Positions 933 to 63,101 of a stretch of DNA of 64,000 nt are shown one piece after another. A program made the translations under genes and the position numbers. The stretch is from Acidimicrobiales bacterium (GTDB lineage: Bacteria > Actinomycetota > Acidimicrobiia > Acidimicrobiales > Bin134), in the NCBI GenBank assembly GCA_965208785.1, contig OZ242356.1, positions 1,538,929 through 1,602,928 of the forward strand. Direction: 5' to 3'. A model generated the notes under the pieces. That model was given only the letters and a program-made list of their open reading frames with translations, had not been told where the DNA came from and did no database searches. The first letter of the stretch is position 1. Every line of letters starts with the position of its first letter.

Positions 933-1775
933 ATGGCCGCAATCGCCTTCTTCGTTCACGCTGACCGGTCGGAAGCCCTCAAGCTTGCGGCTGAACTCGT
1001 TGGCCGTTTGGACGGCGACGGTCATGAAATCCGGCTGCTGCCTGAGTCGGCTGAGGCGGTGGACCGCTCCGACCTGGCCCATCTCGACGACCGCATTGGC
1101 GAGAAGCTGGACTTGGCCGTGAGCTTGGGCGGCGACGGGTCCATGCTCCGAGCGGTGACCGCGGTGGCCGACGACGGGGTGCCGGTTCTCGGGGTCAACT
1201 ACGGCTCATTGGGCTATCTGACCGGGATCGAGCCGGATTCGGCCTCAGAGGCAGTCGAGCAGTTCCTAGCCGGGAACTACATCATCGAGGAGCGCATACG
1301 GCTGCACTGTCGACTGGGCAACGGCAGCGAGGTGAGCGCTCTCAACGAGGCCATCGTGGAGAAGGTGGACAGCGGTAGAACTGTCAATCTGGCCGTTCAC
1401 ATCGATGGGGAGTTCTTCACCAGCTACGCCGCCGATGGGCTGATCGCGGCCACTCCTACCGGCTCCACCGCCTACTCCCTGTCGGCGGGCGGACCCATCT
1501 TGGCTCCAACCATGAATGCGGTGATCCTCACCCCGGTGGCCCCCCACACGCTGTTCGACCGCAGCCTGGTACTGCTGCCCGATAGCGAACTAGTCATCGA
1601 GGTGTTGGGCGATCGTCCGGCCGCAGTGGCGGTGGACGGCCGTTCGCTGGGCGAGCTGGGCGAAGGGGGCTCGCTGACGGTCTCGGTTTCTGATCAGCCC
1701 GCACGCCTCGTCACCCTCGGCCAGCGAGGCTTCCACCAAGCCCTCAAGTCGTCCTTCGGCTTGTCCGACCGCTGA
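933..1775 (+). CDS. nadK: NAD(+) kinase
   Basis: GGDGSMLRA motif and the TPTGSTAYSLSAGGPI motif. ATG 933 (MAAIAFFVH) lies just after the hicB stop. The track start at 876 is probably too far upstream. Confidence 0.9.
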   Translation: MAAIAFFVHADRSEALKLAAELVGRLDGDGHEIRLLPESAEAVDRSDLAHLDDRIGEKLDLAVSLGGDGSMLRAVTAVADDGVPVLGVNYGSLGYLTGIEPDSASEAVEQFLAGNYIIEERIRLHCRLGNGSEVSALNEAIVEKVDSGRTVNLAVHIDGEFFTSYAADGLIAATPTGSTAYSLSAGGPILAPTMNAVILTPVAPHTLFDRSLVLLPDSELVIEVLGDRPAAVAVDGRSLGELGEGGSLTVSVSDQPARLVTLGQRGFHQALKSSFGLSDR

Positions 1776-1850
1776 CGGGATGAGGACACCAAGCGTGAGC
1801 GTGAGCGGACCCGTCTCAAGTCGTCCTTCGGCTTGTCCGACCGCTGACGG
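1743..1850. repeat. Perfect 36-bp direct repeat (1743-1778 and 1815-1850) around a 36-bp spacer; duplicates the nadK 3' end including its stop codon
   Basis: ctcaagtcgtccttcggcttgtccgaccgctgacgg occurs twice, 72 nt apart and in the same reading frame as nadK. Confidence 0.95.
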
Positions 1851-1862
1851 TGGCCCGAGGCA

Positions 1863-3440
1863 GTGCTGACTGAGCTGGCCGTAGAGAACCTGGGGGTGAT
1901 CGAGCGGCTCAATCTGGTGTTGGGAGCGGGCATGACTGCGCTGACCGGCGAGACCGGGGCGGGAAAGACCCTGGTGGTGACGGCAGTCGACCTGCTCCTG
2001 GGCGGCCGGGCCGACCCAGCGTTGGTGCGGTTCGGGGCCGGCGAGGCCGTCGTCGAGGGCCGGTTCGACCACGAGGGGGAGGAGGTGGTGCTTCGCAGGG
2101 TGGTGCCTGCCGACGGGCGGGCTCGGGCCTATGTCGACGGCCGGCTAGCGTCGGCCGCCACTCTGGCCGAGCTGGGTGCAGAACTGGTGGACCTGCACGG
2201 TCAGCACGACCACCAGTCGCTGTTGCGCCGGGTTCACCAACGGGCCGCGCTGGATCGATTCGGCGGCGTGGACTTGGCCCCGCTTGTGGAGGCTCGGGCC
2301 GCGTTGGCCGACCTGAACCGCCGACGGGCCGAGCTGGGGGGCGACGAGAGATCCCGGGCTCGGGAGATCGAGCTCTGCCGATTCCAGCTAGCCGAGCTGA
2401 ATGAGGCCGGCCTGGAGAACCCCGACGAGGATGAGGTGCTCAAAGGCGAAGAGGCGGTGCTGGCCGACGCTGCCTCCAGCCGGGACGCGGCCCGACAGGC
2501 GGCGATGTCTCTGGGCGCCGATGGCGCGGTGGGGGCTGGGTTGGCCCAGATGGCCGCCGCCGTGGAGAACCGTCCGCCGCTGGAGGGCCAGCATGAGCGG
2601 CTGGTCAACTTGGTGGCCGAGGTTGGAGACCTGTCAACCGAGCTGCGCCGCGCCGCCGAATCCATTGACGAGAATCCGGCCCGACTGGCCGAGGTCCGCC
2701 AGCGCCGGGAGCTGTTGGTTGATCTGCGCCGCAAGTATGGGGAGACCGTGGCCGAGGTCATGGAGTTCCATCGCGATCTGTCTGACCGCCTCGCGGAGCT
2801 GGAGGACTTCGACCGCTTGGCCAAAGACCTCGACGGGGAGCTAGATCGCCGCACCGCGGCGGTGGCTGAAGCCGGTGCCGAAGTGGGTGCGGCTCGGCGG
2901 CAGGCGGCCCACGCGCTGGGCGAAGAGGTGACCGCCAACCTGCGGGAGCTGGCCATGGCCCGAGCCGAGGTGCAGGTGGCGGTGGGCGACGACCCCGGAG
3001 ACGACGTGGACTTCTTGCTGGCCGCCAACAGCGGGGCCCCCGGCCTGCCTCTGGTGTCGGCTGCATCCGGGGGGGAGCTGGCCAGGGTCATGCTGGCCCT
3101 GCGCTTGGTGGTCAGCGCCGGGCCTCCGGTGCTGGTGTTCGACGAGGTGGACGCCGGCATTGGCGGCCAGGTGGCCCAGACCGTGGGCCGGGCGCTGTCG
3201 CGCCTCACCGCCGATCACCAGGTGTTGGTGGTTACCCACCTGCCCCAGGTGGCAGCGTGTGCCGACTGTCAGGTGAGCGTCGTCAAGCACGACGACGGGG
3301 CATCCACAGCCGTGACCGCCGAGTCCTTGGAAGGCGAGGACCGCGTGATCGAGCTGTCCCGGATGCTGTCCGGCTCGCCCGACAGCCAGAGCGCCCGCCG
3401 CCACGCCTCCGAACTTCTTAAGATGTCCCAGGGTGGCTGA
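1863..3440 (+). CDS. recN: DNA repair protein RecN
   Basis: N-terminal Walker A GETGAGKT, long coiled-coil middle region, C-terminal SGGELARVMLAL signature, ~525 aa. GTG start. Confidence 0.95.
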   Translation: MLTELAVENLGVIERLNLVLGAGMTALTGETGAGKTLVVTAVDLLLGGRADPALVRFGAGEAVVEGRFDHEGEEVVLRRVVPADGRARAYVDGRLASAATLAELGAELVDLHGQHDHQSLLRRVHQRAALDRFGGVDLAPLVEARAALADLNRRRAELGGDERSRAREIELCRFQLAELNEAGLENPDEDEVLKGEEAVLADAASSRDAARQAAMSLGADGAVGAGLAQMAAAVENRPPLEGQHERLVNLVAEVGDLSTELRRAAESIDENPARLAEVRQRRELLVDLRRKYGETVAEVMEFHRDLSDRLAELEDFDRLAKDLDGELDRRTAAVAEAGAEVGAARRQAAHALGEEVTANLRELAMARAEVQVAVGDDPGDDVDFLLAANSGAPGLPLVSAASGGELARVMLALRLVVSAGPPVLVFDEVDAGIGGQVAQTVGRALSRLTADHQVLVVTHLPQVAACADCQVSVVKHDDGASTAVTAESLEGEDRVIELSRMLSGSPDSQSARRHASELLKMSQGG

Positions 3441-3473
3441 CGGTCCACCAGTTGTCGCTCTTCCCCGCTAAGC

Positions 3474-5180
3474 TTGGCAGGCGTGACCAAACACATCTTT
3501 GTCACAGGCGGGGTGGCGAGTTCGCTGGGCAAAGGGCTTACGGCCGCATCACTGGGACGCTTGCTCAAGCAGCGGGGTCTGCGGGTGACCATGCAGAAGC
3601 TCGACCCCTACATCAACGTGGACCCGGGCACCATGAACCCCTTCGAGCACGGCGAGGTGTTCGTCACCGACGACGGCGGGGAGACCGATCTGGATCTCGG
3701 CCACTACGAGCGGTTCATCGACGAGAACCTCACCAAGCTCTCCAACGCCACCACCGGCTCCATCTACTCGTCGGTCATCGCCGCCGAGCGCCAAGGCGAG
3801 TATCTGGGCAAGACGGTTCAGGTGATCCCCCACGTCACCAACGAGATCAAGAACCGCATTGCAAGTTTGGTGTCCGACGATATCGATGTGGTCATCACCG
3901 AGATCGGCGGGACCGTGGGCGACATCGAGATCCTCCCCTTCCTGGAGGCGATACGCCAGATTCGCTTGGACGTGGGACGGGGCAACGTGTGCTATGTCCA
4001 CGTCACCCTGGTGCCCTTCATCGGCCCGACCGGCGAGCAGAAGACCAAGCCCACCCAGCACTCGGTTACCGAGCTCCGCAGCCGGGGGGTTCAGCCCGAT
4101 GCCATCGTGTGTCGCAGCGAGTCGCCCATCTCCGACGAGTTGAAGCGAAAGATCTCCAGCCTTTGCGACGTGGACGTGTCGGCAGTGGTCAACGCGGCCG
4201 ACGCCGAGAGCATCTACGAGATCCCCCTGGTGCTCCACGATGAGGGCCTCGACCGGGTGGTCTGCGACATTCTGCGCTTGAGCCCTTCCGAGCCCGATCT
4301 GTCGGATTGGCAGTGGCTGAACCAGCGAATCGAAATGGCCCAGCGCAGTGTGCGCATCGGCTTGATCGGAAAGTATGTAACCCTCCAAGACGCCTATCTG
4401 TCGGTGGTGGAGGCGCTGAACCACGCCGCCATTCATCAGGGTGCGTCGGTGGAGATCGAGTGGATCCAGGCCGAGAGCGTGGAGGGGCTGATGGTCGACA
4501 GCCTGCTGAGCGGGCTGGACGGCATCGTGATCCCCGGCGGCTTCGGCGAGCGGGGCATCGAGGGCAAGATCAACGCCGCCTCCTATTCCCGTGAGAACGG
4601 CATTCCTTGTCTGGGCCTGTGCCTGGGACTCCAGGTGATGACCATCGACTACGCCCGCAACGCGTTGGGCCTGGCCAATGCCCATTCCAGTGAGTTCGAC
4701 CCCAGCACACCGTGGCCGGTGATCGACCTTATGGAGGCGCAGCGCGGCATCACCGACAAGGGCGGCACCATGCGGCTGGGGGCGTGCCTGGCCAAGCTAC
4801 GACCGGGCACCCAGGTGGCCGAGGCGTACGGCGCTGAAGTGGTGTCGGAGCGCCACCGCCACCGCTACGAGTTCAATCCCAAGCTCCGCAGCCGCTTCGA
4901 GGGCACCGACTTTGTGCTCGCCGGGGAGTCGCCCGACGGCCTCTTGGTGGAGTTCATCGAACTGGACAACCACCCATGGTGGGTGGGAACCCAGGCTCAT
5001 CCCGAGTTCAAGAGCCGTCCCGATCGGCCCGCTCCGCTGTTCTGCGGTTTGGTGAAGGCCGCGTTGGATCGCCGAGAGGGAGGAATGACCGCCGATGACG
5101 CTGCTCCTGCCCTTTCGGAGGCAGGGGATTCAGAGCAGGTCGAGGCGGTTGCTGACACCTCGTCCGCAGTCCGCCGTTGA
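3474..5180 (+). CDS. pyrG: CTP synthase
   Basis: [18 protein letters not shown]-terminus and a glutaminase domain with GLCLGLQ. The start is TTG 3474 or in-frame GTG 3483. Confidence 0.95.
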
Positions 5181-5195
5181 GAGGCAGCGAGGGCG

Positions 5196-5741
5196 GTGAG
5201 CATCGGCATGGGCTTCACCCCGGTTGGAGAGTGCCAAGAGTGGCAAGGTCGGGTGGTGTCCCTGAGCGTTGCCGAGATCAGGGCACCCGACGGCTCGGTC
5301 TATGAGCGGGAGATCATCCGCCATCCCGGAGCTGCGGTTATCGTGCCTCTCGACGGCCAAGAAGTCATCATGATCCGCCAGTATCGAGCTGCGGTCAATC
5401 GGGAGATGCTGGAGATCCCCGCCGGGAAGCTGGACAGCCACGATGAGCCTCCCGAGCTCACCGCGCGGCGGGAGATGGAAGAGGAGATCGGCAAACAAGC
5501 CGGCCGTCTTGAGCTGTTGGCCGTGTTCCACAACTCTCCGGGGTTCTGCGACGAGATCACCCACTGTTATCTGGCCACCGAGTTGACCGACGCCGACCGC
5601 CGTCCCCACGGCATCGAGGAGGAGCACATGGCCATCGAGCGCATCAAGCTGGCCGATGTGCCCGATCTCGTGGCCTCCGGCGAGCTGATCGACGCCAAGT
5701 CCATCGTCGGCCTTATGCTGGCCCGCGAGCGTCTGAGGTGA
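5196..5741 (+). CDS. NUDIX hydrolase (ADP-ribose pyrophosphatase-like)
   Basis: Nudix box GKLDSHDEPPELTARREMEEEIG. It holds the conserved position between pyrG and xerD. Confidence 0.85.
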   Translation: MSIGMGFTPVGECQEWQGRVVSLSVAEIRAPDGSVYEREIIRHPGAAVIVPLDGQEVIMIRQYRAAVNREMLEIPAGKLDSHDEPPELTARREMEEEIGKQAGRLELLAVFHNSPGFCDEITHCYLATELTDADRRPHGIEEEHMAIERIKLADVPDLVASGELIDAKSIVGLMLARERLR

Positions 5742-15123: not shown

Positions 15124-15198
15124 GTGGGGTGTGTTGCGGCACATCGCTGGCCCTAAGGGAGTTCAGACAGCGCTGAGGACGGCGTGCAGGTATGGCGA
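15124..15198. repeat. Left copy of a 75-bp direct repeat (74/75 identical to 16979-17053)
   Basis: Aligned base by base, with a single mismatch (15186 G versus 17041 T). It carries a fossil copy of the helicase 3' end (SPYLHAVLSAV-stop) 9 nt after the antiporter stop. Confidence 0.95.
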
Positions 15199-15200
15199 GG

Positions 15201-15236
15201 GGGAGGGTGAACTCCACCGGTGGAGTTCACCCTCCC
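15201..15236. repeat. Perfect 36-bp palindrome (two 18-nt arms, no loop) at the inner edge of the left repeat
   Basis: gggagggtgaactccacc / ggtggagttcaccctccc are exact reverse complements. The palindrome contains the DUF4411 stop codon (15227-15229). Confidence 0.95.
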
Positions 15237-15715
15237 AAGACGAATCGTGCTCTCTCTGCCCGCAGCATCTCGTAGGGATTGACGAATTTGACTCCTGTCC
15301 CAATGCAGGCATTGGGAATCTTGATCTTCTTTGGTGATGGGCTAAACACCTCATGCGTCACCACGACATGGTCGTGCGCATGGGCTTGGGCCACGAGGTA
15401 ATAGTCGGCAACTTGCAAAAACGTCGCGACCCCCGCCGGTTCATAGCTTTGGCCGTTCGCCCAGCTGCTCACAACGGTCAGGCTGGGCACAACCTCGGTA
15501 TCCGGAGAAAGAAACAACCCAGGCCTCTGTCTGGCCCATTCTGCGAGTTCATCGTCCACGGCCTGGATTTCGTTACCCACTCTCTCGATGCTGAAGACTC
15601 TGCCCAAAGCATTCTGCTGAACGAGCCAGTCCCAGAACGCGGGGCAGAATTCGAATCCATAGTGGAGGTTCTTCGCTTGGATAAAGACGTTGGCGTCAAG
15701 AAGGTACGTCGTCAT
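15227..15715 (-). CDS. DUF4411-family PIN-like nuclease (putative toxin)
   Basis: 162 aa. YLLDANVFIQAKNLHYGFEFCPAFWDWL at the N-terminus is the pattern I recognise for DUF4411. The start overlaps the upstream gene's stop (ATGA). Confidence 0.75.
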   Translation of the reverse strand: MTTYLLDANVFIQAKNLHYGFEFCPAFWDWLVQQNALGRVFSIERVGNEIQAVDDELAEWARQRPGLFLSPDTEVVPSLTVVSSWANGQSYEPAGVATFLQVADYYLVAQAHAHDHVVVTHEVFSPSPKKIKIPNACIGTGVKFVNPYEMLRAERARFVLGG

Positions 15716-16902
15716 ATCACTCCAAGACGCTGGCTCAGTTCATTGAATGTGGATTGCTTCTTGAAGCCGAGCATCTTGAAAGCGTCTGTATAGAGTGTCT
15801 GCCCCTCAAGAGTGCTGGCGATGACCGAGCGAGCGAACAACTTGGATATCCTGATGGGTTGTGTGTTGTAGAAATTGCCCCCCTCGCCTCCTTTGTCGAT
15901 CAGATCAAAGACGCGATCGAGTTCGGCTCGGTACGAACTTCGATACTCGTTCCAATCAAGGTACCCGGCTTCAAATACCCTCCGCAGCACCACAAGAGTG
16001 CTTGATTTGAAGCGACGCGCTAGTCGATCAAGTTCATCAGTCAGGTCGGCATGGACATCAAACACCGAACGCAGCGTCTCTAAAGGCACTAGGACTTCTC
16101 CGGCAACGCGGTTGCACCAGCGCTCCACCTCATTCGTCGATTGCGTTCCGAGATCTGCATCAGAAAGGGCGCTTTCACCAAGCCAGATATGGGCCAATTC
16201 GTGGGCAAGAGTGAATATCTGTGCCGCTCTTGTGTCTGATCCGTTGACAAAGACCAGAGGTGCCAGCGAGTCGACAAGCGCAAATCCTCTGAACTCTTCA
16301 GGATCCAGCTTGCGGTGGGTATTGCTTCCTACCACACCGCTGACCATGACCAGCACTCCGATTTCCTCGGCCTGGTCTCTCAGGTAGGCAAATGCGTCAG
16401 CCCAACTCGGTCCTCGCATGTCGATCTGAAAGGAGAGTGCTGCTGTGATCTCAGCACCTGCCTTCGCGGGTGGAACGGCAGTAGTTATCGAGCCAACCTG
16501 GGAAACCTGGTGGATTCCAATGCTGTGAGCATAGTCGCGGTACCAGTCCTGTCGCTGCTGGCATTGGTAGATGGTGTCCAGAAGATCAGGACTCGGTCGA
16601 CTGACAGACCTATCACCGATAGTACGGAAGTCGGGTATGGGCACCCCGTCCTCTGGTGGCGTCTGCAAGAAGAAGAAGCCAACCGGCGTGCGGGTCGCCC
16701 TCGCGAAATTCTCTAGTTGCTTCAAGGTGGGAGCCATCTCACGAGACTCCCATTTGGGCAACTTGGGAAACTTGCTCGCGAGCTTCTCATCGTCAAGGCC
16801 AGAGCGCTCGCAGGCCCATGTCAACAAAGCGGGGTTAACGTCAACCCGAACTGTCACGCCTATCCATCCCTGCTCATGATTCGGAGGGGGCGAACGCACC
16901 AT
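15712..16902 (-). CDS. XRE-type HTH fused to ImmA/IrrE (COG2856, DUF955) zinc metallopeptidase
   Basis: HELAHIWLGE (HExxH) in the centre. The N-terminal ~70 aa look HTH-like (APTLKQLENFARATRTPVGFFFL). The true start may be a GTG ~45 nt downstream of 16902. Confidence 0.8.
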   Translation of the reverse strand: MVRSPPPNHEQGWIGVTVRVDVNPALLTWACERSGLDDEKLASKFPKLPKWESREMAPTLKQLENFARATRTPVGFFFLQTPPEDGVPIPDFRTIGDRSVSRPSPDLLDTIYQCQQRQDWYRDYAHSIGIHQVSQVGSITTAVPPAKAGAEITAALSFQIDMRGPSWADAFAYLRDQAEEIGVLVMVSGVVGSNTHRKLDPEEFRGFALVDSLAPLVFVNGSDTRAAQIFTLAHELAHIWLGESALSDADLGTQSTNEVERWCNRVAGEVLVPLETLRSVFDVHADLTDELDRLARRFKSSTLVVLRRVFEAGYLDWNEYRSSYRAELDRVFDLIDKGGEGGNFYNTQPIRISKLFARSVIASTLEGQTLYTDAFKMLGFKKQSTFNELSQRLGVI

Positions 16903-16978
16903 TTCCTTGCCCCAATCACAAAACCATATCTCCCCACAACCGAAGTTCTAGCCCAATGCTCATGAACAATCATGGCTA

Positions 16979-17053
16979 GTGGGGTGTGTTGCGGCACATC
17001 GCTGGCCCTAAGGGAGTTCAGACAGCGCTGAGGACGGCGTTCAGGTATGGCGA
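16979..17053. repeat. Right copy of the 75-bp direct repeat
   Basis: Covers the last 11 codons plus stop of the helicase gene (17018-17053) and 39 nt downstream of it. Confidence 0.95.
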
Positions 17054-18469
17054 AGGAGAGCGGGCCGAGGTCCGGTCTCCGAAGGCCCGCTCTGAGGCCC
17101 AGTGGCAGTGCAGTTCTCGCTTGGCCCTGGTGATGGCCACGTAGAGCAGACGCCGCTCCTCGGCGACCTCGGCCGCCGTCTGTGCCCGGCTGATGGGCAC
17201 CAGTCCCTGCTCCATGCCGGCCAGATGCACGATGGGCCACTCCAGCCCCTTGGCCGCATGAAACGTGGACACATCCACCGCGTCGGCAACGCTGGGCCGG
17301 GCTGCTCCGGCGCCATGCTCGGTGCGGTGGGAGTCGATGCGAACTCGACAGGGGATCTGCGCTTTGCCCAGCGCAGTGGCCAGCACTGCGATTTGGGCAT
17401 TGGTGCGGGCCAGCACGGCCATCGACGACCATGCCGTCTCGGGGCCCTTGGCGTCGCGCAGGGCTCGAGCTATGGCCAGCGCCTCGTCGAAGTCGTCGGC
17501 ATGGGTGCTCACCGTGGGCCGGGGACCGTCGAGGCTGTGGGCGGTCAGCGAGGCCGACCCCGCCGGCAGCACCGCCCGGCCCGCGGCCAGGATCTGCGGG
17601 CTGGAGCGGTAGTTGTCCACCAGGTCGAGCACCGCGGCATCGGGCAACCAGTCGGTGAACCGCTCGATGTATTCGGAGTCCGCGCCGTTCCATCCGTAGA
17701 TCGCCTGATTGGGATCGCCCACCGCGCACAGGTCGTTGCGGTCGCCCAGCCAGGCTCGGAGCAACTCGAACTGGAGCCGGTTCACGTCCTGGAACTCGTC
17801 GACGAACAGGTGTCGGCAGCTCCAGCGGCGGGCCTCGGCGTATTCGGGGTCGTCGGTCAAGTCCCTCAGGGCCAAGATCAGCAGGTCGTCGAAGTCCACC
17901 ACCCGCCGTTTGGCCTTCTCGCGCTCGTAGTGCTGGTAGACGTCGGCGACGGCGGCATGGTTCATTGCCGTCCAGCGGCCGAAACCGGCAGCCTTTTCGC
18001 GATAGTCGTCGGGGGTGAGGCGGTGCGCCTTGGACCATTCGATTTCGGCCACCGCATCTTGCACCTCGGCCTTGGCCAGACGCAGTCCTGCTTGTTTGGC
18101 CGACCGGGCGACCAGGCCTCGCTTGTCTTGCACTATTTCTGGCGGCCTGACCCCTCCCTCGGCCCAGCGGGTGCGCAACTGGGCATAGGCCGTGCTGTGA
18201 AAGGTGCCCGCTTTCACCGAGCTCCGCAGCCCCAGCCCGGCCAGGCGCTCGCGAAGTTCGTCGGCCGCCTTGCGGGTGAACGTGATTGCCAGGGTGCGCT
18301 TGGGGTCGATGGCGCCGATGCCGGACTGATAGGCGATCCGACGGGTGAGCACCCTGGTCTTGCCGGTGCCTGCCCCGGCGCGGATGCACAGCGGCGTCCC
18401 CGGGGATTCCACCGCGGCCCGCTGCCGCTCGTTCAGCCCCTCCATCACTGGCTCCAAAACCCTCACCAC
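17018..18469 (-). CDS. Short UvrD/PcrA-like superfamily-1 helicase
   Basis: Walker A AGAGTGKT, motif II LFVDEFQDVN, C-terminal UvrD_C-like VSTFHAAKGLEWPIV and LLYVAITRAK. At 483 aa (or 475 aa from ATG 18445) it is far shorter than canonical UvrD. Confidence 0.85.
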   Translation of the reverse strand: MVRVLEPVMEGLNERQRAAVESPGTPLCIRAGAGTGKTRVLTRRIAYQSGIGAIDPKRTLAITFTRKAADELRERLAGLGLRSSVKAGTFHSTAYAQLRTRWAEGGVRPPEIVQDKRGLVARSAKQAGLRLAKAEVQDAVAEIEWSKAHRLTPDDYREKAAGFGRWTAMNHAAVADVYQHYEREKAKRRVVDFDDLLILALRDLTDDPEYAEARRWSCRHLFVDEFQDVNRLQFELLRAWLGDRNDLCAVGDPNQAIYGWNGADSEYIERFTDWLPDAAVLDLVDNYRSSPQILAAGRAVLPAGSASLTAHSLDGPRPTVSTHADDFDEALAIARALRDAKGPETAWSSMAVLARTNAQIAVLATALGKAQIPCRVRIDSHRTEHGAGAARPSVADAVDVSTFHAAKGLEWPIVHLAGMEQGLVPISRAQTAAEVAEERRLLYVAITRAKRELHCHWASERAFGDRTSARSPSPYLNAVLSAV

Positions 18470-18478
18470 CCCAACCTA

Positions 18479-18578
18479 CCGACACCGGTGACAATTGCGA
18501 GGTTCCCTGAATGGGCGTCCAATATCGTCTCTGATCTTGCGAATCCGACACCGGTGACAATTGCGAGGTTCCCTGAAT
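18479..18578. repeat. Perfect 34-bp direct repeat (18479-18512 and 18545-18578, period 66) upstream of the helicase start
   Basis: ccgacaccggtgacaattgcgaggttccctgaat occurs twice. On the coding (minus) strand each copy contains TTGTCACCGGTG. Confidence 0.95.
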
Positions 18579-53114: not shown

Positions 53115-54202
53115 TGGTGCTGCGCCGTCGGCGAAAAAGGAATGGGCAGGCAATTGCTGAGCCGGAAGCCGAACTTCCTGTTGGATCGGAGGTTGGTTCG
53201 GCACCAGTTGGCGAGCAGAACGAGTCTGAGCCGGAAACCGAACTTCCTGTTGGATCGGAGGTTGGTTCGGCACCAGTTGGCGAGCAGAACGAGTCTGAGC
53301 CGGAAACCGAGAGGGCCAGCTTCCGGAACCGGCTGGCCACGGCACGGGGCACGTTCTCGGGGTTTCTGGCGTCGGTGGCCTCCCGGGGAGTCGACGAAGC
53401 CACCTGGGAGGAGTTGGAAGACGCCTTGGTGCTGGCTGATGCCGGTGTCGGCACTGCGGCCTCCGTTTTGGATCGGTTGAAGGAACGGGCAAAAGCCGAC
53501 AAGATCACCGATCCCGAGGCGCTGGTGGCCATGCTCAAATCCCAGTTGGCTGAGAACCTCGGAGGTCGTGATCTGGAATTGGGCACCGACGGCAGTCCTG
53601 CTGTGTGGCTGTTCGTGGGCGTGAACGGGGTGGGGAAGACCACCACCATCGGCAAGCTGGCTGCTCGGGAGGTGCGCTCCGGGCGAAAGGTGGTGCTGGC
53701 GGCGGGCGACACTTTTCGAGCGGCGGCAGCCGAGCAGCTGGGCATGTGGGCCGACCGGTCGGGCGCCGAGTTGATTCGGGGTGCTGAGGGTGCCGATCCC
53801 AGCTCGGTCATCTACGACGCCATCGAGCATGCCGCGTCGGCAGGAGTGCCGCTGGTCATGGCCGACACCGCTGGTCGCCTGCATTCTCGCACCAACCTTA
53901 TGGACGAGCTGGCCAAGATCTACCGGGTGGCCGGCAAAGGGCCGGGCAGGGTCGCCGAGGTGCTGTTGGTAATCGACGCCACCACCGGCCAGAACGGCCT
54001 CGCCCAGGCCCGCCGGTTCACCGAGTCGGCGGAGCTGACCGGCGTCGTGCTCACCAAGCTCGACGGGTCGGCCAAGGGCGGCATTGTGATGGCAGTGCAG
54101 AATGAGCTGGACATCCCGGTGAAGTTGGTGGGCCTCGGGGAGGGGCTCGACGACCTGGTGGAATTCGATGCCGCCGAGTTCGCCGAAGCCCTTCTCGCCT
54201 AA
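53114..54202 (+). CDS. ftsY: Signal recognition particle receptor FtsY
   Basis: Acidic repeat N-terminus followed by an NG domain with GVNGVGKTTTIGKLA, DTAGR and TKLDGSAKGG. Confidence 0.9.
   Translation: MVLRRRRKRNGQAIAEPEAELPVGSEVGSAPVGEQNESEPETELPVGSEVGSAPVGEQNESEPETERASFRNRLATARGTFSGFLASVASRGVDEATWEELEDALVLADAGVGTAASVLDRLKERAKADKITDPEALVAMLKSQLAENLGGRDLELGTDGSPAVWLFVGVNGVGKTTTIGKLAAREVRSGRKVVLAAGDTFRAAAAEQLGMWADRSGAELIRGAEGADPSSVIYDAIEHAASAGVPLVMADTAGRLHSRTNLMDELAKIYRVAGKGPGRVAEVLLVIDATTGQNGLAQARRFTESAELTGVVLTKLDGSAKGGIVMAVQNELDIPVKLVGLGEGLDDLVEFDAAEFAEALLA
53159..53310 (+). repeat. In-frame 69-bp tandem repeat, 2.2 copies (68/69 identity), in the FtsY acidic N-terminal region
   Basis: Units start at 53159, 53228 and 53297 and encode EPE(A/T)ELPVGSEVGSAPVGEQNES. 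Confidence 0.95.
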
Positions 54203-54249: not shown

Positions 54250-55728
54250 ATGTTCGACACGCTGAGCAATCGGTTCGAGGGCATCTTCAAGCGTTTGCGC
54301 GGCTTGGGGACACTGCGGGAGGGCGATGTCGACGAGGTGCTGCGGGAGATCCGCCTCGCCCTGCTCGATGCCGACGTCAACCTCCACGTGGTCCGCGGCT
54401 TCCAGGACAGAGTCCGCGAGCGGTGCGTGGGCGCCGAGGTCCACAAGGCGCTGGATCCAGTCCAGCAGGTGATCAAGTTCGTCCACGAGGAGCTGGTTGC
54501 CACCCTGGGCGGCGAGACCCTGGAGATATCCCATCCGGCCAAACCCCCCACGGTGGTGCTGTTGGCCGGGCTTCAGGGCTCGGGCAAGACCACCAACGCG
54601 GCCAAGCTGGCCTCCTGGTTCAAGCAGCAGGGCCGCAACCCCATGCTGGTGGGCGCCGATTTGCAGCGTCCGGCAGCGGTAGAGCAGCTCCGCACCCTTG
54701 GCGCGGCCATCGGGGTTCCGGTGTTCAGCGAGCCATCCGATCCGATTGCCGCGGCCAAGCGCGGTGTGGCCGAGGCCGCGGCCTCCGGCCGGGATGTGGT
54801 TGTCTGCGACACCGCCGGGCGGCTGGCCATCGACGACGAGATGATGGAGCAGGTCGGGCGGATATCCGATGCCATCGAGCCCCACTACACCTTCTTGGTG
54901 GTCGATGCCATGACCGGCCAGGACGCGGTGGCCACGGCCCAGTCGTTTCATGCCGTTCTCGAACTCGACGGGGTGATCCTCACCAAGGTGGACGGGGACG
55001 CCCGGGGGGGCGCGGCGCTGTCGGTGAAAGAGGTGGTGGGCCGGCCGATCGCCTTCTCCTCCACCGGCGAGAAGATCGACGAGTTCGAGTTGTTCCACCC
55101 CGACCGGGTGGCCAGCCGGATTCTCGGCATGGGCGATGTGCTCACCCTCATCGAGAAGGCCGAGCAGGTGTACGAGGAGGCCGAGGCGGAAGCGGCCGCG
55201 GCCAAGCTGCTGGAGGGCGAGTTCACGCTGGAGGACTTCTTGGAGCAGATGCGCCAGCTCAAGAAGATGGGCTCGCTCCAAAACCTGGTGGGGATGCTCC
55301 CCGGCGCCACCCCCGAGTTGCGCGAAGCTGAGATCGAAGACGAGCAGATCGCCCAAGTGGAGGCCATCATCTGCTCGATGACCCCACAAGAGCGGGCTGC
55401 CCCCCGCATCATCGACGGCTCTCGCCGTCAGCGGATCGCCGCCGGTTCGGGCACCCGCCCCTCTGAGGTCTCCCAGCTTCTGCGGCAGTTCAGCGAAGTC
55501 CAGCGGATGATGAAGAGAATGGGCGGCGGCAAGGGGCCCGGCGCCGGTCGAAAGAAGTCCAAGAAGGGCCGAAGGGGAAGTCGGGTGACTCCGCCGGGCG
55601 GCCGGCAGAGGGGAAGTCGGGTGACTCCGCCGGGCGGCGGGCAGGGAAAGCCGGGAAAGCCGGGAAAGCCCAAGCTGGCTTTGCCGGGCTTGGAAGACGG
55701 TCCGTTCGATCTCTCCTCCCTGAGGTAG
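54250..55728 (+). CDS. ffh: Signal recognition particle protein Ffh
   Basis: GLQGSGKTTNAAKLA, DTAGR and TKVDGDARGGAALS motifs, a Met-rich M domain, and a basic repeat tail. Confidence 0.95.
   Translation: MFDTLSNRFEGIFKRLRGLGTLREGDVDEVLREIRLALLDADVNLHVVRGFQDRVRERCVGAEVHKALDPVQQVIKFVHEELVATLGGETLEISHPAKPPTVVLLAGLQGSGKTTNAAKLASWFKQQGRNPMLVGADLQRPAAVEQLRTLGAAIGVPVFSEPSDPIAAAKRGVAEAAASGRDVVVCDTAGRLAIDDEMMEQVGRISDAIEPHYTFLVVDAMTGQDAVATAQSFHAVLELDGVILTKVDGDARGGAALSVKEVVGRPIAFSSTGEKIDEFELFHPDRVASRILGMGDVLTLIEKAEQVYEEAEAEAAAAKLLEGEFTLEDFLEQMRQLKKMGSLQNLVGMLPGATPELREAEIEDEQIAQVEAIICSMTPQERAAPRIIDGSRRQRIAAGSGTRPSEVSQLLRQFSEVQRMMKRMGGGKGPGAGRKKSKKGRRGSRVTPPGGRQRGSRVTPPGGGQGKPGKPGKPKLALPGLEDGPFDLSSLR
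55574..55645 (+). repeat. In-frame 36-bp tandem duplication in the Ffh C-terminal tail
   Basis: A 29-nt perfect core at 55574-55602 and 55610-55638 encodes GSRVTPPGG(R/G)Q(R/G) twice. Confidence 0.95.
55644..55670 (+). repeat. (gggaaagcc)x3 microsatellite encoding GKPGKPGKP
   Basis: Three perfect 9-nt units read directly. Confidence 0.95.
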
Positions 55729-57781: not shown

Positions 57782-57855
57782 TCAACGCGGGTATGATTGC
57801 CCCTTGCGCCCCTAGAGCCTGAGTTGGGCGCTGAAGTACTCACAAGAGGCGTGCT

Positions 57856-58200
57856 ATGAACCCCACCGACATCGTTGACCGCGGCACCAGGCGAACCGAC
57901 ATTCCGGAGTTCAGCCCGGGCGACACGGTGAAGGTGCATGTTCGCGTGGTGGAGGGCAGCCGCGAGCGGGTTCAGGTTTTCGAGGGTGTGGTCATCCGCC
58001 GCCAGGGCAGCGGGATACGCGAGACCTTCACCGTTCGAAAAGTGAGTTTCGGGGTGGGAGTGGAGCGAACATTTCCGATCCATTCACCCATTATCGCCAA
58101 GGTGGAGGTTGGATCCCGCGGCGATGTACGCCGGGCCAAGCTCTATTACCTGCGCGATCGCATCGGCCGAGCTGCCCGCGTCAAGGAGAAGCGCTTCTAG
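57856..58200 (+). CDS. rplS: 50S ribosomal protein L19
   Basis: [33 protein letters not shown]...[14 protein letters not shown]. Confidence 0.95.
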
Positions 58201-58243
58201 GCGAGCTGTCAGCCCCCCGCGTCGAGGAGAAGCGCTTCTAGGC
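58175..58243. repeat. 28-bp direct repeat (27/28; 58175-58202 and 58216-58243, offset 41) duplicating the rplS 3' end including its stop codon
   Basis: cccgcgtc(a/g)aggagaagcgcttctaggc occurs twice, aligned base by base. Confidence 0.95.
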
Positions 58244-58275
58244 TAATTGTCGCTCCCCATGCTTATGGTGGAGGT

Positions 58276-58620: not shown

Positions 58621-58627
58621 TCTGGCC

Positions 58628-58810
58628 TTAGCCCAGCACGGCCCACAGAATCAGTCCTATACACACCAGCAGGCCCGCGGCAACGTACCAGTAGTCAAAA
58701 GGCGTGCGTCGCTGCTTGCGTGTGGGATCAAAGCCGATATCCCAGTATGTTCCCACTGGTGGTGGCAAGGAAAGCCGTTGTTTCTGGACTGGCAGTTCTG
58801 GCCCTGGCAT
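58628..58810 (-). CDS. Possible small C-terminally anchored membrane protein
   Basis: 60-aa ORF ending in the hydrophobic helix YWYVAAGLLVCIGLILWAVLG. Its 5' part overlaps the cytochrome c gene start on the other strand, so the real start (if any) may be internal. Confidence 0.3.
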   Translation of the reverse strand: MPGPELPVQKQRLSLPPPVGTYWDIGFDPTRKQRRTPFDYWYVAAGLLVCIGLILWAVLG

Positions 58811-59124
58811 TTGCAGTCGCGTCCGGATGCGGATATGCCTCTTCTCCTGAGGTGGGGCAAGGGCCTGAAGGCACCCCTGATCCCGTGCTGGTATCCGGTC
58901 GGGCGGTGTACGCCGACCGGTGTTCGTCCTGCCACGACGCCGACGGCAGTGGGACCGGCGACGGCCCTCGGCTGAACCGGGGTCGGCTGTTGCGGGCGTA
59001 CTCAGACCCCGGCGGCGCCGTGGCGGTGGTTTCGAATGGTCGAGACCGGATGCCGGCTTTCGGCGGGCTGCTGACCGCGGATGAAATCGATGCGGTGCTC
59101 CGCTATATCAACGAGGTTCTCTGA
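58747..59124 (+). CDS. Class I c-type cytochrome, predicted lipoprotein
   Basis: Lipobox LAFAVASGC, heme motif CSSCH, distal RMPAF Met ligand. ATG 58747 (MFPLVVARK) is preferred over the track start at 58720. Confidence 0.75.
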   Translation: MFPLVVARKAVVSGLAVLALAFAVASGCGYASSPEVGQGPEGTPDPVLVSGRAVYADRCSSCHDADGSGTGDGPRLNRGRLLRAYSDPGGAVAVVSNGRDRMPAFGGLLTADEIDAVLRYINEVL

Positions 59125-59199
59125 CCAGGGGCACTTGTCACTGGCTTTCGCTATCAACGAGGTTCTCTGACCAGGGGCACTTGTCACTGGCTTTCGCTA
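59106..59199. repeat. Perfect 46-bp tandem duplication (59106-59151, 59152-59197) containing the cytochrome c last codons, stop codon and 27 nt of 3' flank
   Basis: tatcaacgaggttctctgaccaggggcacttgtcactggctttcgc occurs twice back to back, followed by ta. Confidence 0.95.
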
Positions 59200-59217
59200 A
59201 GGTCTCAAGACACGCTC

Positions 59218-60813
59218 GTGGCCGGCGCAATGGCCTCCTTCCAGGCACGAGGAGCCATCCTCGAGAAAGCACCATCCGTGCTCGCCACCATTCCCGCCTC
59301 CGTTCTCGCCGGCATCACCGGACATCCCGTTTCGGTTGAAGTCCACGTCTCTTCCGGCCTGCCCACCTTCACCGTCGTGGGCCTACCCGATGCCGCGTGC
59401 CGGGAGGCCAGAGATCGGGTTCGCGCCGCTTTGCTCTCCAGCGGTGTCGTTTGGCCCCCCGGCCGCATCACCGTCAACCTGGCGCCCTCGGGGATCCGAA
59501 AGGAGGGTCCGGGGCTCGACTTGGCCATCGCAATGGGCGTGATGGTTGCCGACGAGCAGCTGCCTGCTGAGGTCTTGGCCGGCGTGGCCTTTTTGGCCGA
59601 ACTGGGGCTAGACGGTCGCCTTCGGTCGGTGCCCGGCGTGCTGCCCCAGGTTCGCTGTCTGGATGCCGCCGCAGTGGTGGTGGCCCCGGAGAGCGCGGCA
59701 GAGGCTGCGTTGGCCAACGGCCCTGTGGTCCGGGCGCCGTCCACGCTGCGGAAACTTGTCTCCGCGCTGCGGGGCGAAGAGTGTTGGCCCGATCCACCCC
59801 GCGCCGGGTCGGAGAACCGGTTGGAAGAGGGTGTGGACCTGGCCGATGTGCGAGGCCAGCACATGGCCCGTTTGGGATTGGAAGTGGCCGCGGCAGGCGG
59901 ACACCACCTGCTGATGATCGGGCCTCCGGGCGCAGGGAAGACCATGTTGGCCCGGCGGCTGCCCGGGCTGCTTCCCCCGTTGGATGAGACCACCGCCATT
60001 GAGGTGACCATGGTGCATTCCGCCGTAGGCCTGGACCTGCCCACCTCAGGACTGATTCGCCGGAGTCCATGGCAGGCGCCTCACCACTCGGCTTCGATGG
60101 TCTCAATGGTGGGTGGCGGGAGCCAGACACTTCGGCCCGGTGCGATCAGCTGCGCCCATGGCGGCGTGCTGTTCTTGGACGAGATGGGAGAGTTCGCGCC
60201 CCAAGCGCTGGACGCGCTGCGCCAGCCGCTGGAGGAGGGGGTGATTCGAGTCAACCGGGCTACCGCGGTGGCCTCGTTTCCCGCCCGCTTCCTGTTGGTG
60301 GGGGCGATGAATCCCTGTCCATGCGGTGAGCTCGGGCAGCCGGGGATGTGCCGCTGCACCCCGGTGGCCCGACTGCGCTATGCCCGTCGGCTGAGCGGCC
60401 CGCTGCTCGACCGGTTCGATCTGAGAATCCATGTGGGGCGCCCGGAGGTCAGCGACTTGTTCGACGCCCCACCGGGGGAGTCTTCCGCTGCGGTCAGGCA
60501 GAGAGTTGATCGGGCACGAGCCATGGCCCGAGATCGGGGGGTGGTCTCCAACAGCGAACTGGGAGACGACGCGCTGGACCAACTCGCTCCCCTTGACCCA
60601 GAAGCCAAGAACCTGCTTGGCCGCTCCATCACGGAGGGTCGGCTTACCGCTCGAGGGTTCCAGCGGGTTCGCCGGGTTGCCCTCACGCTGGCCGATTTGG
60701 CCGAGCAGCCACCCCCCTTGAACGGGATGGTTGTCGCTCAAGCCCTGTTCATGCGCACGGAGCCGGTTACCGTCGCCCACGATCCCTGGAACTTCGCCAA
60801 TGTCGGGAGATGA
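59218..60813 (+). CDS. comM: YifB/ComM-family Mg-chelatase-like AAA+ ATPase
   Basis: Lon-protease-like N-terminal domain, then Walker A GPPGAGKTMLARRL, GVLFLDE and NPCPCG motifs. Confidence 0.9.
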   Translation: MAGAMASFQARGAILEKAPSVLATIPASVLAGITGHPVSVEVHVSSGLPTFTVVGLPDAACREARDRVRAALLSSGVVWPPGRITVNLAPSGIRKEGPGLDLAIAMGVMVADEQLPAEVLAGVAFLAELGLDGRLRSVPGVLPQVRCLDAAAVVVAPESAAEAALANGPVVRAPSTLRKLVSALRGEECWPDPPRAGSENRLEEGVDLADVRGQHMARLGLEVAAAGGHHLLMIGPPGAGKTMLARRLPGLLPPLDETTAIEVTMVHSAVGLDLPTSGLIRRSPWQAPHHSASMVSMVGGGSQTLRPGAISCAHGGVLFLDEMGEFAPQALDALRQPLEEGVIRVNRATAVASFPARFLLVGAMNPCPCGELGQPGMCRCTPVARLRYARRLSGPLLDRFDLRIHVGRPEVSDLFDAPPGESSAAVRQRVDRARAMARDRGVVSNSELGDDALDQLAPLDPEAKNLLGRSITEGRLTARGFQRVRRVALTLADLAEQPPPLNGMVVAQALFMRTEPVTVAHDPWNFANVGR

Positions 60814-62077
60814 GCTTTTGACCGGCGCCGGGGCGGTGCAGGCGCCCGAGGGATCGGTGCCATTTCAGGAGCAGTTCCCGTCTGCCAATGTCCAGGTTGC
60901 CAAAACGGCGCAAGGCCAAGTCCACCAGTGCTTCCGGGAGCTCCCGTCTGCCAATGTCCAGGCCGCGGGGGTGGGGGAGTTGCCGGTGGAGGCCTGGCTT
61001 GTGGCGTTGGCCTCTTTGTCTGCTGTGGGGCCGGCTCGGCTTCGCGCACTGCTCGCCATCGGGGGGCCGGCTGAAGTGTGGGCCAGCATCCATGGCCCAC
61101 CATCACCCGAGGTTGCCCGAGTGGCCGGGAAGCAAGACTTGTACGAGCAGTGGCGCCGTACTGCTGTCGGTCTCGATGTTGCCCAGTTGTGGTTGCAGCA
61201 CCGCGAGCATGGCATTGGCGTGGCAGCCCTGGGCGCTCCCGGATATCCGCCCGCATTGTCGGACGATTTGGATCCGCCCGCGGTGGTGTTCCACAAAGGG
61301 GATCCTCAGGTGGTCGGCGGCCCCCGTGTGGCCATCGTCGGCACCCGACGCTGCACACGCTATGGCAGCGATGTGGCGTTCGAGTTGGGTCGGGACTTGG
61401 CATCCGCCGGGGTGGGCGTTGTCTCGGGTCTGGCCCTGGGAATCGATGCTGCTGCCCATGCCGGCGCTCTGGATGCAAAGGGCGCTCCGCCCATCGCGGT
61501 TGTGGGCAATGGAATGGACAAGGTGTATCCAGAGCGCAATCGGTCTCTGTGGCGGGCGGTTGCCGATCAGGGAGTGCTGTTGGGCGAGGCGCCCTTGGGG
61601 GCTCCTCCAGAGCGGTGGAGGTTTCCCGCTCGGAACCGGATCATCGCGGCCCTTGCCGACGTCGTTGTCGTGGTGGAGTCCCACGCTTCGGGAGGGGCGA
61701 TGCACACGGTGGCTGAGGCGGCTGATCGAGACAGGGCGGTTATGGCCGTTCCCGGACCGGTGCGAAGTTCGGCATCAGACGGCTGTTTCGACCTGTTGGC
61801 CGATGGCTGCGCCCCTTGCCGCGGTGCCGATGATGTGCTGCTGGCTCTGGGCATGTCAGGCGCCGAGGCCAGCGGCCTTGACGCCCGTACGAGCCCTGGC
61901 GCAATCGGCCAGCGGGTGTTGGATGCACTGGGCTGGCAGCCCGCCGATGCCGAGCAGATTCGTGTTCGCTCCGGGCTGGACATGCCCGATGTGGCCGGAG
62001 CGGTGGAAGGGCTGCGAGCCGCGGGCTGGGTGGCGGTCTCGGGGCGCTGGATCGAGCGGATAGGCGCTCCCCGATGA
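60800..62077 (+). CDS. dprA: DNA-processing protein DprA with extended N-terminus
   Basis: Rossmann-like core VAIVGTRRCTRYG...SGLALGIDAAAHAGAL...VESHASGGAMHTV. ATG 60800 overlaps the comM end by 14 nt. Confidence 0.85.
   Translation: MSGDELLTGAGAVQAPEGSVPFQEQFPSANVQVAKTAQGQVHQCFRELPSANVQAAGVGELPVEAWLVALASLSAVGPARLRALLAIGGPAEVWASIHGPPSPEVARVAGKQDLYEQWRRTAVGLDVAQLWLQHREHGIGVAALGAPGYPPALSDDLDPPAVVFHKGDPQVVGGPRVAIVGTRRCTRYGSDVAFELGRDLASAGVGVVSGLALGIDAAAHAGALDAKGAPPIAVVGNGMDKVYPERNRSLWRAVADQGVLLGEAPLGAPPERWRFPARNRIIAALADVVVVVESHASGGAMHTVAEAADRDRAVMAVPGPVRSSASDGCFDLLADGCAPCRGADDVLLALGMSGAEASGLDARTSPGAIGQRVLDALGWQPADAEQIRVRSGLDMPDVAGAVEGLRAAGWVAVSGRWIERIGAPR
60876..60962 (+). repeat. 21-bp perfect direct repeat (60876-60896, 60942-60962; period 66, in frame) in the DprA N-terminal extension
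   Basis: tcccgtctgccaatgtccagg occurs twice, encoding (F/L)PSANVQ twice. Confidence 0.95.
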
Positions 62078-62119
62078 GGCCGGCGCCGGAGTTGTGCTGC
62101 CCGTCGGTAGTCTTGAGCA

Positions 62120-63031
62120 TTGATGGGCTGGGATCTGGATGCCTTTGCTGACTCGGCTGCATCGGTCAGCCGGAACACCGCGGCGATGTATTGCCGAGAG
62201 GTGGCCGCGTTGGCCGAGTGGCTCGGGCAATCCAGCAGCGGTGCTTCTCCGGATTCGGTACACCATGCGGGTCCAGGCGAAGTCGACCTCCGTGCGATCC
62301 GGAGGTACTTGGCCCATTTGAGCACGCAGGGCTATGCCCGTAAGACGGTGGCCCGAAAGGCATCGTCGTTGCGCCGCTACTTCCGATGGGCTGAGCGCAC
62401 TGGCCGAGTTGCCGCCGACCCCACAGTGGGCGCCACGGTGCCGATCCGAGAGCGCCGACTGCCCCGGGTGCTGCGCTCCGAGGAGTTGGACACCCTGTTG
62501 GAGCAGCCGCGGGCGGCGGTGGTCGACGACAGCCGCGCTCGCTGCCAACGCGACATCGCAGTGTTGGAACTGCTGTACGGAAGCGGTCTTCGGGTCGGCG
62601 AGGTGTGCGCCATCCGCGCGGGGGACATCGATTGGGAGCGTCGGCGTCTCACGGTGAAGGGCAAGGGGTCGAAGCAGCGGATCGTGCCGCTGAGCGAGCC
62701 TGCCGCGGCCGCACTGCTGGAGTGGATGGCCGATGGCCGAGAGGAGATGGCCGACCCGTCAGTTGCCGGGGACGCGGTGTTCGTGAATCTGCGCGGCCGG
62801 CCGATGAACACCCAGGCCGTCCGTCGGCTCGTGGACCGTCGGGCCAGCGTCAAGACCAACCCCCATGCATTGCGCCACACTTTTGCCACCCACCTGCTCG
62901 ACGGCGGAGCCGACTTGAGGCAGGTGCAGGAGTTGTTGGGCCACACCGATCTGGGATCCACGCAGATATACACCCATGTCAGCCGGGAGCGGCTCCGCAG
63001 CGTGGTGGAGGACAGCCATCCTCGAGCTTGA
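62120..63031 (+). CDS. xerC: Tyrosine recombinase XerC
   Basis: HALRHTFATHLL and LGHTDLGSTQIYTHV catalytic motifs. It holds the conserved position after dprA. TTG 62120 or ATG 62123. Confidence 0.85.
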   Translation: MMGWDLDAFADSAASVSRNTAAMYCREVAALAEWLGQSSSGASPDSVHHAGPGEVDLRAIRRYLAHLSTQGYARKTVARKASSLRRYFRWAERTGRVAADPTVGATVPIRERRLPRVLRSEELDTLLEQPRAAVVDDSRARCQRDIAVLELLYGSGLRVGEVCAIRAGDIDWERRRLTVKGKGSKQRIVPLSEPAAAALLEWMADGREEMADPSVAGDAVFVNLRGRPMNTQAVRRLVDRRASVKTNPHALRHTFATHLLDGGADLRQVQELLGHTDLGSTQIYTHVSRERLRSVVEDSHPRA

Positions 63032-63034
63032 TTG

Positions 63035-63101
63035 CATCTTTTTGCTTCCCCTCCGGTCAAAGTTCTTATAGCATTTTTTTCTTCCCCTCCGGTCAAAGTT
63101 C
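63035..63101. repeat. T-rich direct repeat (perfect 21-nt core cttcccctccggtcaaagttc at 63045-63065 and 63081-63101; ~31 nt with one indel) between xerC and the M23 gene
   Basis: Read directly. Period 36. It is markedly AT-rich relative to its surroundings. Confidence 0.9.

Follow-up and report, generated by a model that had tools for sequence, protein, structure and literature searches.

The window examined here is a stretch of 64,000 bp (contig OZ242356.1) from the chromosome of a sponge-associated member of the Acidimicrobiia, of the 'Candidatus Poriferisocius' group, and it carries nine loci at which a short sequence is directly duplicated, often across the end of a gene. The source chromosome is complete (3,535,727 bp, 65.4% G+C) and comes from a single-contig metagenome-assembled genome (MAG), labelled G000 in the following; the labels G001, G002, G007 and so forth denote other Poriferisocius genomes. 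All nine loci of the original prediction were recovered in place when re-derived with Tandem Repeats Finder and a direct-repeat scan. They take two main forms, repeat-unique-repeat structures (R-S-R), where R is the duplicated target and S the unique insert between its copies, and two-copy tandem duplications (TD), together with one large case, the cassette at the helicase end (window positions):

1743–1850 (genome position 1540671), plus strand: R-S-R at the nadK stop codon, R of 36 bp in two 100% identical copies, S of 36 bp, offset 72
15124–17060: helicase-end cassette between 82-bp direct repeats (15124–15205 and 16979–17060; 79 of 82 positions or 96% identical; 1855 bp apart)
18479–18578: intergenic R-S-R upstream of the helicase gene, R of 34 bp (100% identical), S of 32 bp, offset 66
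53157–53310, plus strand: in-frame TD in the N-terminal region of ftsY, 69 bp in 2.2 copies, 98% identical
55573–55670, plus strand: in-frame TD in the C-terminal tail of ffh, 36 bp in two copies followed by 9 bp in three
58170–58251, plus strand: older TD across the rplS stop codon, 41 bp in two copies, 85% identical
59106–59199, plus strand: TD at the end of the cytochrome c gene, 46 bp in two copies, 100% identical
60812–60972, plus strand: comM/dprA junction with an R-S-R in the dprA 5' region, 24-bp pair at 60873–60896 and 60939–60962, S of 42 bp, offset 66
63039–63101: TD form in the xerC–M23 spacer, a 36-bp insertion made up of a 27-bp duplicated target and 9 bp of filler, offset 36

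The nadK locus displays the R-S-R form most clearly: the first copy (1743–1778) holds the last codons of nadK and its TGA, a foreign 36-bp S follows (1779–1814), and the second copy (1815–1850) is reached before recN starts at position 1863. In three congeners (G007, G022 and G001) the same site is exactly empty, with one R and no S, and the flanks in relatives align as two pieces with a 36-bp overlap on the subject side and a 36-bp gap between them on the query side. Upstream of the helicase gene the copies lie at 18479–18512 and 18545–18578 around an S that is single-copy in the genome, with the flanks of relatives too diverged for an empty-site comparison. The comM/dprA junction holds about 126 nt more in G000 than in relatives and contains GCCAATGTC three times, so that it looks like a series of nested events at one site. 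At the xerC–M23 site, the filler is missing from G010 and R is present once (implied overlap 27). As for the remaining TD, the 36-bp unit of ffh is single in G001, G007 and G022 and doubled in four assemblies of conspecific strains, in which the adjoining 9-bp unit has two copies as against three in G000; the rplS unit is present once in nine relatives and twice in all spanning conspecific contigs; and the ftsY duplication concerns a variable linker that finds no alignment in relatives. The duplicated unit at the cytochrome c end consists of the last 18 nt of the gene, the stop codon and 28 nt of spacer with a conserved TTGTCA promoter-like box; it is single in G010 and doubled in conspecific assemblies, and the duplication was not seen in the other eight relatives, whose spacer is diverged at this point. 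A conserved promoter-like pair, TTGTCA ... TA(t/a)GGT, follows the stop codons of both rplS and the cytochrome c gene in nine of nine relatives (window 58240–58262 and 59170–59215), and the 46-bp duplication doubles its TTGTCA box.

In order to place these loci in the context of the whole chromosome, we used a two-copy scan (R of at least 24 bp, offset of at most 110), which returned 68 TD, 42 R-S-R and 4 degenerate TD, while 1.5 Mb of Markov-2 random sequence gave no such locus in the same scan: the pattern is thus genome-wide and not peculiar to the window. Several R-S-R candidates were reclassified as degenerate TD or coding repeats (1888261, a case of offset 71 in G007, one of offset 78 in G001, and 111-bp and 72-bp protein repeats). 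Event density is highest at 1.5–2.1 Mb, a stretch that includes the window and holds 14 of 30 R-S-R; GC skew places it mid-replichore, and clustering at the replication terminus was therefore dropped as an interpretation. The cumulative GC skew itself runs from a minimum at 0.31 Mb to a maximum at 2.81 Mb without closing, such that the replichores appear to be very unequal.

Comparison with congeners reveals that the events are characteristic of this lineage. Within a syntenic 400 kb, 11–12 good R-S-R were counted in G000 and only 0–1 in each of six congeners. TD with a period of at least 25 bp, counted over the same extent with the same criteria for each genome, numbered seven in G000, two in G010 and one in G001. 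The only clean R-S-R in the samples of the six congeners are those of G051 (36/36), G022 (34/39) and G048 (31/26). Besides nadK (1540671), relatives were found to have the exact empty site, a single R lacking S, for 1729321, 1821337 (in G007), 1862629 and 1864807, and the TD at ffh, rplS, the cytochrome c gene and xerC–M23 likewise have their single-copy state in relatives. The R-S-R loci are therefore precise insertions, that is, occupied sites rather than footprints of excision. At three further sites (1620769, 1640612 and 1726924) the comparison with other species failed, all four syntenic relatives having 0.5–1.1 kb extra between the flanks, which implies that a larger rearrangement or the loss of genes took place at these insertion sites in the G000 lineage. 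Independent recurrence was found at three sites: the comM/dprA junction with its nesting within G000, the ffh tail (G010) and the nadK stop codon, where G002 carries an array of its own (54 bp in 2.4 copies, composed of a 24-bp R and a 30-bp S with the S repeated; L004, about 1950–2110) whose right boundary is that of the 36/36 insertion in G000.

Since the genome is a single-contig MAG, an assembly or consensus artefact of long-read data was one of the explanations on offer. Conspecific contigs were found by exact-protein look-up of genes beside the loci (look-ups for nadK and one other neighbouring gene gave no match) and are short-read assemblies of other samples, 99.2–99.8% identical over about 110 kb (ENA ERZ23495468, ERZ23495471 and ERZ23495530; GCA_028819295.1; GCA_028820185.1; JGI 3300009928; Logan SRR10996925). 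They cover ten catalogued events, among them the doubled 36-bp unit of ffh, rplS, the cytochrome c gene and the R-S-R at 1620769, 1640612, 1726924, 1729321, 1862629 and 3372005: nine of the ten are present in every spanning contig and the tenth in four of five, and the dprA repeat, which lies outside this catalogue, is likewise found in the spanning contigs. The recurrence of the same ten events in independent short-read assemblies refutes the artefact, to which we attach next to no probability. In case of the tenth event, 1640612, a 72-bp insertion is exactly missing from contig L280, which has a single R, no S and no other difference nearby; the other four contigs carry the insertion, and two of them already carry a substitution in its second R copy. 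Over the roughly 110 kb the only large differences seen between strains concern three repeats, namely the 9-bp unit of ffh, a 15-bp array and this one 72-bp R-S-R. The events are thus real, mostly fixed in the species and polymorphic in at least one case. The 15-bp array is a coding (AAKKP)n repeat in a 187-aa protein (genome 1,862,058–1,862,230), and its copy number differs in a conspecific contig. Two contigs of the G014 MAG, C182 and C261, are also 98–99% identical to the present genome, compared to about 74–90% for other G014 contigs, and probably represent cross-species contamination of that bin.

We then considered the position of the events relative to genes, called with a home-made codon-usage caller (2,935 genes, 86% coding). 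Stop codons lie within R in 17 of the 42 R-S-R, where random placement gives 2.4%, and within the repeat in 15 of the 68 TD, where it gives 4%, and the enrichment at stop codons that had been proposed is therefore confirmed. More generally, 27 of the 42 R-S-R and 24 of the 68 TD extend across a gene boundary (about 12% by random placement), and the non-coding R-S-R divide 27:7 between boundary and intergenic positions instead of the expected ratio of about 1.2:1. It is not stop codons alone that are regenerated: start codons and overlapping stop/start junctions are as well, with many R holding an ATGA overlap, so that after insertion the first copy ends the upstream gene and the second starts the downstream one. 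Among events inside genes, 6 of 8 R-S-R and 23 of 24 TD are in frame. As a long target duplication rebuilds the gene end and events inside genes are almost all in frame, the link to gene ends points mainly to survivorship, although some targeting on top of selection is possible. The earlier suggestion of an insertion and excision process that regenerates gene 3' ends thus holds in its insertion form for the R-S-R, on the strength of empty sites and foreign inserts, and fails with respect to excision footprints, nor does it simply extend to the cassette, the association with 3' ends being largely a matter of survival. It might instead be argued that the duplications are kept because they are of use, as gene-boundary 'stutters' that make relay reading frames or tune translational coupling or promoter spacing, in the manner proposed for mycobacterial interspersed repetitive units (MIRUs): the strong boundary enrichment and the presence of nine of ten events in every conspecific contig covering them would suit this idea. 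However, usefulness accounts for retention and not for origin, leaves foreign S and the size classes described below unexplained, does not sit well with an R-S-R that a conspecific strain lacks without any other nearby difference, and would have to work through units that, unlike MIRUs, share no common sequence; we regard it as very improbable.

The inserts themselves provide further information. A second copy of S in the genome was found for only one of the 42, in a paralogous region, and templating of S from elsewhere in the same genome was therefore rejected. Searches of S against 40 species of the genus identified three likely donors. The S of 1967857 is identical at 40 of 40 positions to a chromosomal gene of G014; the ortholog of G000 itself, at 196 kb, reaches about 72% within S and 77% across the 328 nt around it. 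For the S of 1640612 the match is 88–94% to a gene that some 25 congeners have kept, compared to about 79% for the ortholog of G000 79 kb away, and a gene of G020 matches the S of 1821337 at 90%. The lack of a second genomic copy and the closer match of three inserts to congener genes than to own orthologs indicate that S is foreign, and these sequence matches identify it as DNA captured from other Poriferisocius species. All S differ and none recurs, nor were shared ends or inverted repeats detected among them, contrary to what a transposable element would lead one to expect.

A candidate for the capture of such fragments lies elsewhere on the same chromosome, in the only locus of its kind in the genome:

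999,464–1,010,105 of the genome (L001 9464–18739 and L002 1–1105), outside the window: complete type I-G CRISPR-Cas locus

This locus encodes Cas3, proteins of the GSU0053 and GSU0054 families, a Cas4–Cas1 fusion (PF01930 and PF01867, E 1.7e-92) and Cas2 (PF09827), the latter two adjoining an array of 16–17 repeats of 36 nt (ATTCGGGGGGTTATTGAACCCCCCCTTCATTGAAGC) with 15 spacers of 36–38 nt. Both adaptation proteins are full length and 95–97% identical to their congener counterparts, and a defective Cas4/1 or Cas2 behind promiscuous integration was rejected as both are intact and unremarkable. Cas4/1 remains 95–96% identical in protein even in congeners with much more divergent housekeeping genes, an indication that the cas operon has spread horizontally in recent times. 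A degenerate repeat containing a run of 18 C closes the array. The sizes of one class of R-S-R match the 36-nt repeat and 36–38-nt spacer of this resident unit, a correspondence not noted in the original prediction. Insert lengths of non-coding events peak at 35–37 (10 events), 65–66 (8) and 71–73 (13), with a trough at 67–70 that holds one event where 5.4 would be expected if lengths were uniform, and the TD among them peak at 36. In the class of offset 71–74, R measures 33–38 and S 34–38 bp, including two exact 36/36 cases. Over all R-S-R, R is mostly 32–38 bp (median 33–34), values of 24–30 and 40–49 also being present, and S is 35–38 bp in 11 of 42, with further groups at about 31–32 and 25–30 and a tail down to 10 bp. 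Target sites resemble the CRISPR leader and repeat slightly more than matched non-coding sites do (mean of 14.9 versus 13.5 matches in 46, z = 3.0), and no strong positional motif was detected at them.

Taken together, we tentatively favour a combination of ordinary slippage duplications and off-target spacer integration by Cas4/1–Cas2, both filtered by selection, and give this reading slightly less than an even chance. Simple TD of 30–100 bp would most likely derive from replication slippage. The R-S-R would arise when 20–40 bp of outside DNA becomes embedded within a target duplication of about 32–38 bp: the resident Cas4–Cas1 fusion and Cas2 may join a spacer-sized fragment to two staggered positions about 36 bp, or one repeat, apart, and gap filling would then duplicate the target just as the repeat is duplicated in an array. 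Selection would remove most events and leave targets that span a stop, a start or a stop/start junction, where both genes stay intact, along with in-frame insertions inside genes; because the survivors keep both genes intact, it looks as though the repeats served to restore gene ends. In E. coli, overexpressed Cas1–Cas2 is documented to integrate DNA at off-target genomic sites, according to the accounts of Nivala et al. 2018 given in PMC7054753, PMC11788318, PMC6698737 and bioRxiv 10.1101/148544. Its natural frequency is described as unclear, with circumstantial evidence for two species only (bioRxiv 10.1101/148544).

Occurrence among congeners lends this reading some colour: the three clean R-S-R named above are all from Cas1-positive genomes and come from 1.6 Mb of such sequence, whereas the Cas1-negative G001 and G007 show none in 0.8 Mb. 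Moreover, two R-S-R of offset 71 lie 0.5–1.5 kb from CRISPR arrays, in G046 (L263 5477–5644) and G017 (L262 16270–16937). These two adjoin arrays or solitary repeat remnants, and G017 also has an orphan type I-G mini-array of two repeats beside a large array of another repeat type.

A considerable number of observations nonetheless weigh against the involvement of Cas4/1–Cas2. The association with Cas1 among congeners rests on three events and is not significant, and G010 has a 95% identical Cas4/1 and an array of 66 repeats and yet no R-S-R in 400 kb. The sharp class at offset 65–66 (R about 33, S about 32; 8–10 events), along with a class near 59, matches no CRISPR of the genus; a second CRISPR type with a 66-bp period was considered and rejected, and since both repeat types found have periods of 72–76 these classes are left over. 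R and S trade off at a constant sum (34/38, 36/36, 38/34), unlike what a fixed repeat ruler would give, and S forms a continuum from 0 to 54 bp in which fillers of 2–20 bp are too short to be spacers. We found no locus with two different spacers and hence no growth of a neo-array, loci with three copies being tandem arrays of identical units; the comM/dprA junction may be a degenerate exception to this single-spacer rule. Hairpins are not favoured in target R (mean z -0.36). No protospacer-adjacent motif (PAM) is common to the three donors: their flanks read CGG/TCC, GGC/AGC and CAC/GCT and contain neither a shared motif nor TTN, though the genuine array supplies no native PAM for comparison, none of its 15 spacers having matched any of the 40 species searched. 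At 1967857, 16 of 19 nt at the junction are the same in the flank of the donor and at the boundary of the target, which suggests annealing rather than integrase chemistry. Finally, TD also appear to be commoner in G000, a hint that one cause outside CRISPR underlies both kinds of event.

Much of this would be accommodated by replication template switching, in which the nascent strand slips back 30–100 nt to yield a TD or, for an R-S-R, first copies exogenous single-stranded DNA, for example from natural transformation, and then re-anneals upstream, at a rate raised by a lineage-specific change in replication or repair. One mechanism would then cover the continuum of S as well as the seemingly raised numbers of TD and R-S-R alike, and the lack of a common PAM, the 65–66 class and the silence of G010 count in its favour; the junction homology at 1967857 speaks for it too, as do the donors, which are chromosomal genes of congeners as expected of transforming DNA, with comM and dprA both present in the window. 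On the other hand, template switching predicts neither a sharp minimum near 32 bp nor discrete peaks at 36, 65–66 and 71–73 with a trough between them, and it does not predict that R should be about equal to S and coincide with the 36/36–38 CRISPR unit. Junction homology was furthermore found at only one of the three donors, and the R-S-R beside CRISPR arrays in two congeners would be a coincidence. We therefore judge this explanation unlikely overall, albeit the foremost rival.

The quantisation of lengths could also be produced by a different enzyme, i.e. an integrase, transposase or nuclease unrelated to Cas that makes cuts staggered by about 33–36 bp or by double that distance, with or without capture of filler. 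In its favour, insert lengths are quantised at 36, 65–66 and 71–73 irrespective of how they divide into target and filler, the events are specific to this lineage, and certain sites recur (G000 and G002 at the nadK stop codon, G000 and G010 at the ffh tail, and the nested comM/dprA junction). However, no candidate enzyme was found, the inserts lack shared ends or inverted repeats, and the target motif is not strong. In addition, the genome has no homologue of Ku (PF02735): canonical non-homologous end joining is seemingly absent and could not rejoin filled-in breaks, which argues against end joining of staggered breaks in general and weakens it as an explanation. We hold such an enzyme to be improbable. 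Related to this is an as yet undescribed process based on a ruler, which would quantise the inserted length (36, 65–66, 71–73) while leaving the split between target and foreign DNA free, would be tied to CRISPR integration loosely or not at all, and would record DNA of co-resident sister species at gene junctions; this we consider doubtful, with a small but real chance of being correct. Should the CRISPR reading be wrong, quantised lengths and captured foreign DNA would suggest a so far undescribed mechanism of insertion.

Several known systems invite comparison. The 'neo-CRISPR' loci of Nivala, Shipman and Church, reportedly described in Nat Microbiol in 2018, are said to result from off-target spacer integration under Cas1–Cas2 overexpression in E. 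coli. The present loci resemble them in that spacer-sized foreign DNA lies outside an array within a target duplication of about one repeat, with a precise empty site and an intact adaptation module; they differ in being dozens of fixed events in a wild genome with a type I-G system and a Cas4–Cas1 fusion, in their extra size classes (65–66 and about 59), very short fillers and lack of a common PAM, in having chromosomal genes of sister species as donors and no second spacer, and in that Cas1–Cas2 dependence is here a matter of inference. With MIRUs and other variable-number tandem repeats (VNTRs) they share a length of 40–100 bp and a position at actinobacterial gene junctions, often with the upstream stop and the next start. 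MIRUs form one sequence family, defined by a common consensus, and vary in copy number. Here, each unit copies its own local sequence, mostly in exactly two copies, with a foreign insert between them at many loci, and units and inserts have no matches elsewhere in the genome: without a common consensus, the units are not MIRU-like in this sense. The original attribution to slippage and VNTR-like variation fits the simple TD (ftsY, ffh, the cytochrome c gene and rplS) and not a MIRU-like family, and copy-number variation between strains was seen only at a 9-bp and a 15-bp unit.

Short-patch double illegitimate recombination and homology-facilitated illegitimate recombination of transforming DNA are known from Acinetobacter baylyi and Streptococcus. 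As in these processes, short exogenous DNA from relatives has entered with little or no homology, and one junction shows homeology of 16 of 19 nt; in contrast, illegitimate recombination replaces or inserts DNA without a target duplication of 32–38 bp and without a preferred insert length. Transposons and casposons also leave a direct target duplication around inserted DNA. Their known duplications measure 2–15 bp and surround a defined element with ends and a transposase, whereas in the present case the duplication is 24–49 bp and the inserts, each with a sequence of its own, measure only 10–54 bp.

If integration by Cas4/1–Cas2 is indeed responsible, this would be the first wild genome found with dozens of fixed off-target spacer integrations. 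It would quantify a mutational burden of CRISPR adaptation that has gone unseen, illustrate how insertions accompanied by a long target duplication can persist where gene junctions are densely packed, provide raw material for new CRISPR arrays and constitute a record of DNA exchange between sister species in the same sponge. In practical terms, the loci disrupt overlapping stop and start codons, double promoters and lengthen essential genes in frame (ffh, ftsY), and they should be anticipated by the pipelines that annotate such symbionts and the schemes that type their strains.

The cassette at the helicase end requires separate treatment. Between its 82-bp repeats lie 1.77 kb with two open reading frames on the minus strand (15227–15715 and 15712–16902), and the 3' end of the helicase gene is rebuilt by the right repeat copy. 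In G001 and G010 there is no cassette, and the stop codon of the antiporter gene directly abuts that of the helicase gene. The core of the cassette is found at other sites in G046, G053, G013 and G049 at 71–88% identity: in G013 one end of the cassette carries a repeat of 85 nt, and no flanking direct repeat of at least 20 nt was detected for those of G046, G053 and G049, contrary to what the att-type duplication of a site-specific integrative element would lead one to expect. The proposal that the cassette is the occupied state of the same process that made the small insertions is thus not simply correct, given a repeat of 82 bp that is only 96% identical and congener cassettes that stand elsewhere and mostly without flanking repeats. 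We regard it as a separate event that has only its outcome, a regenerated gene end, in common with the small insertions, and it could have originated by recombination with a donor allele. A perfect palindrome of 36 nt, matching its own reverse complement, spans the junction of the left 82-bp repeat and the cassette cargo (window 15201–15236).

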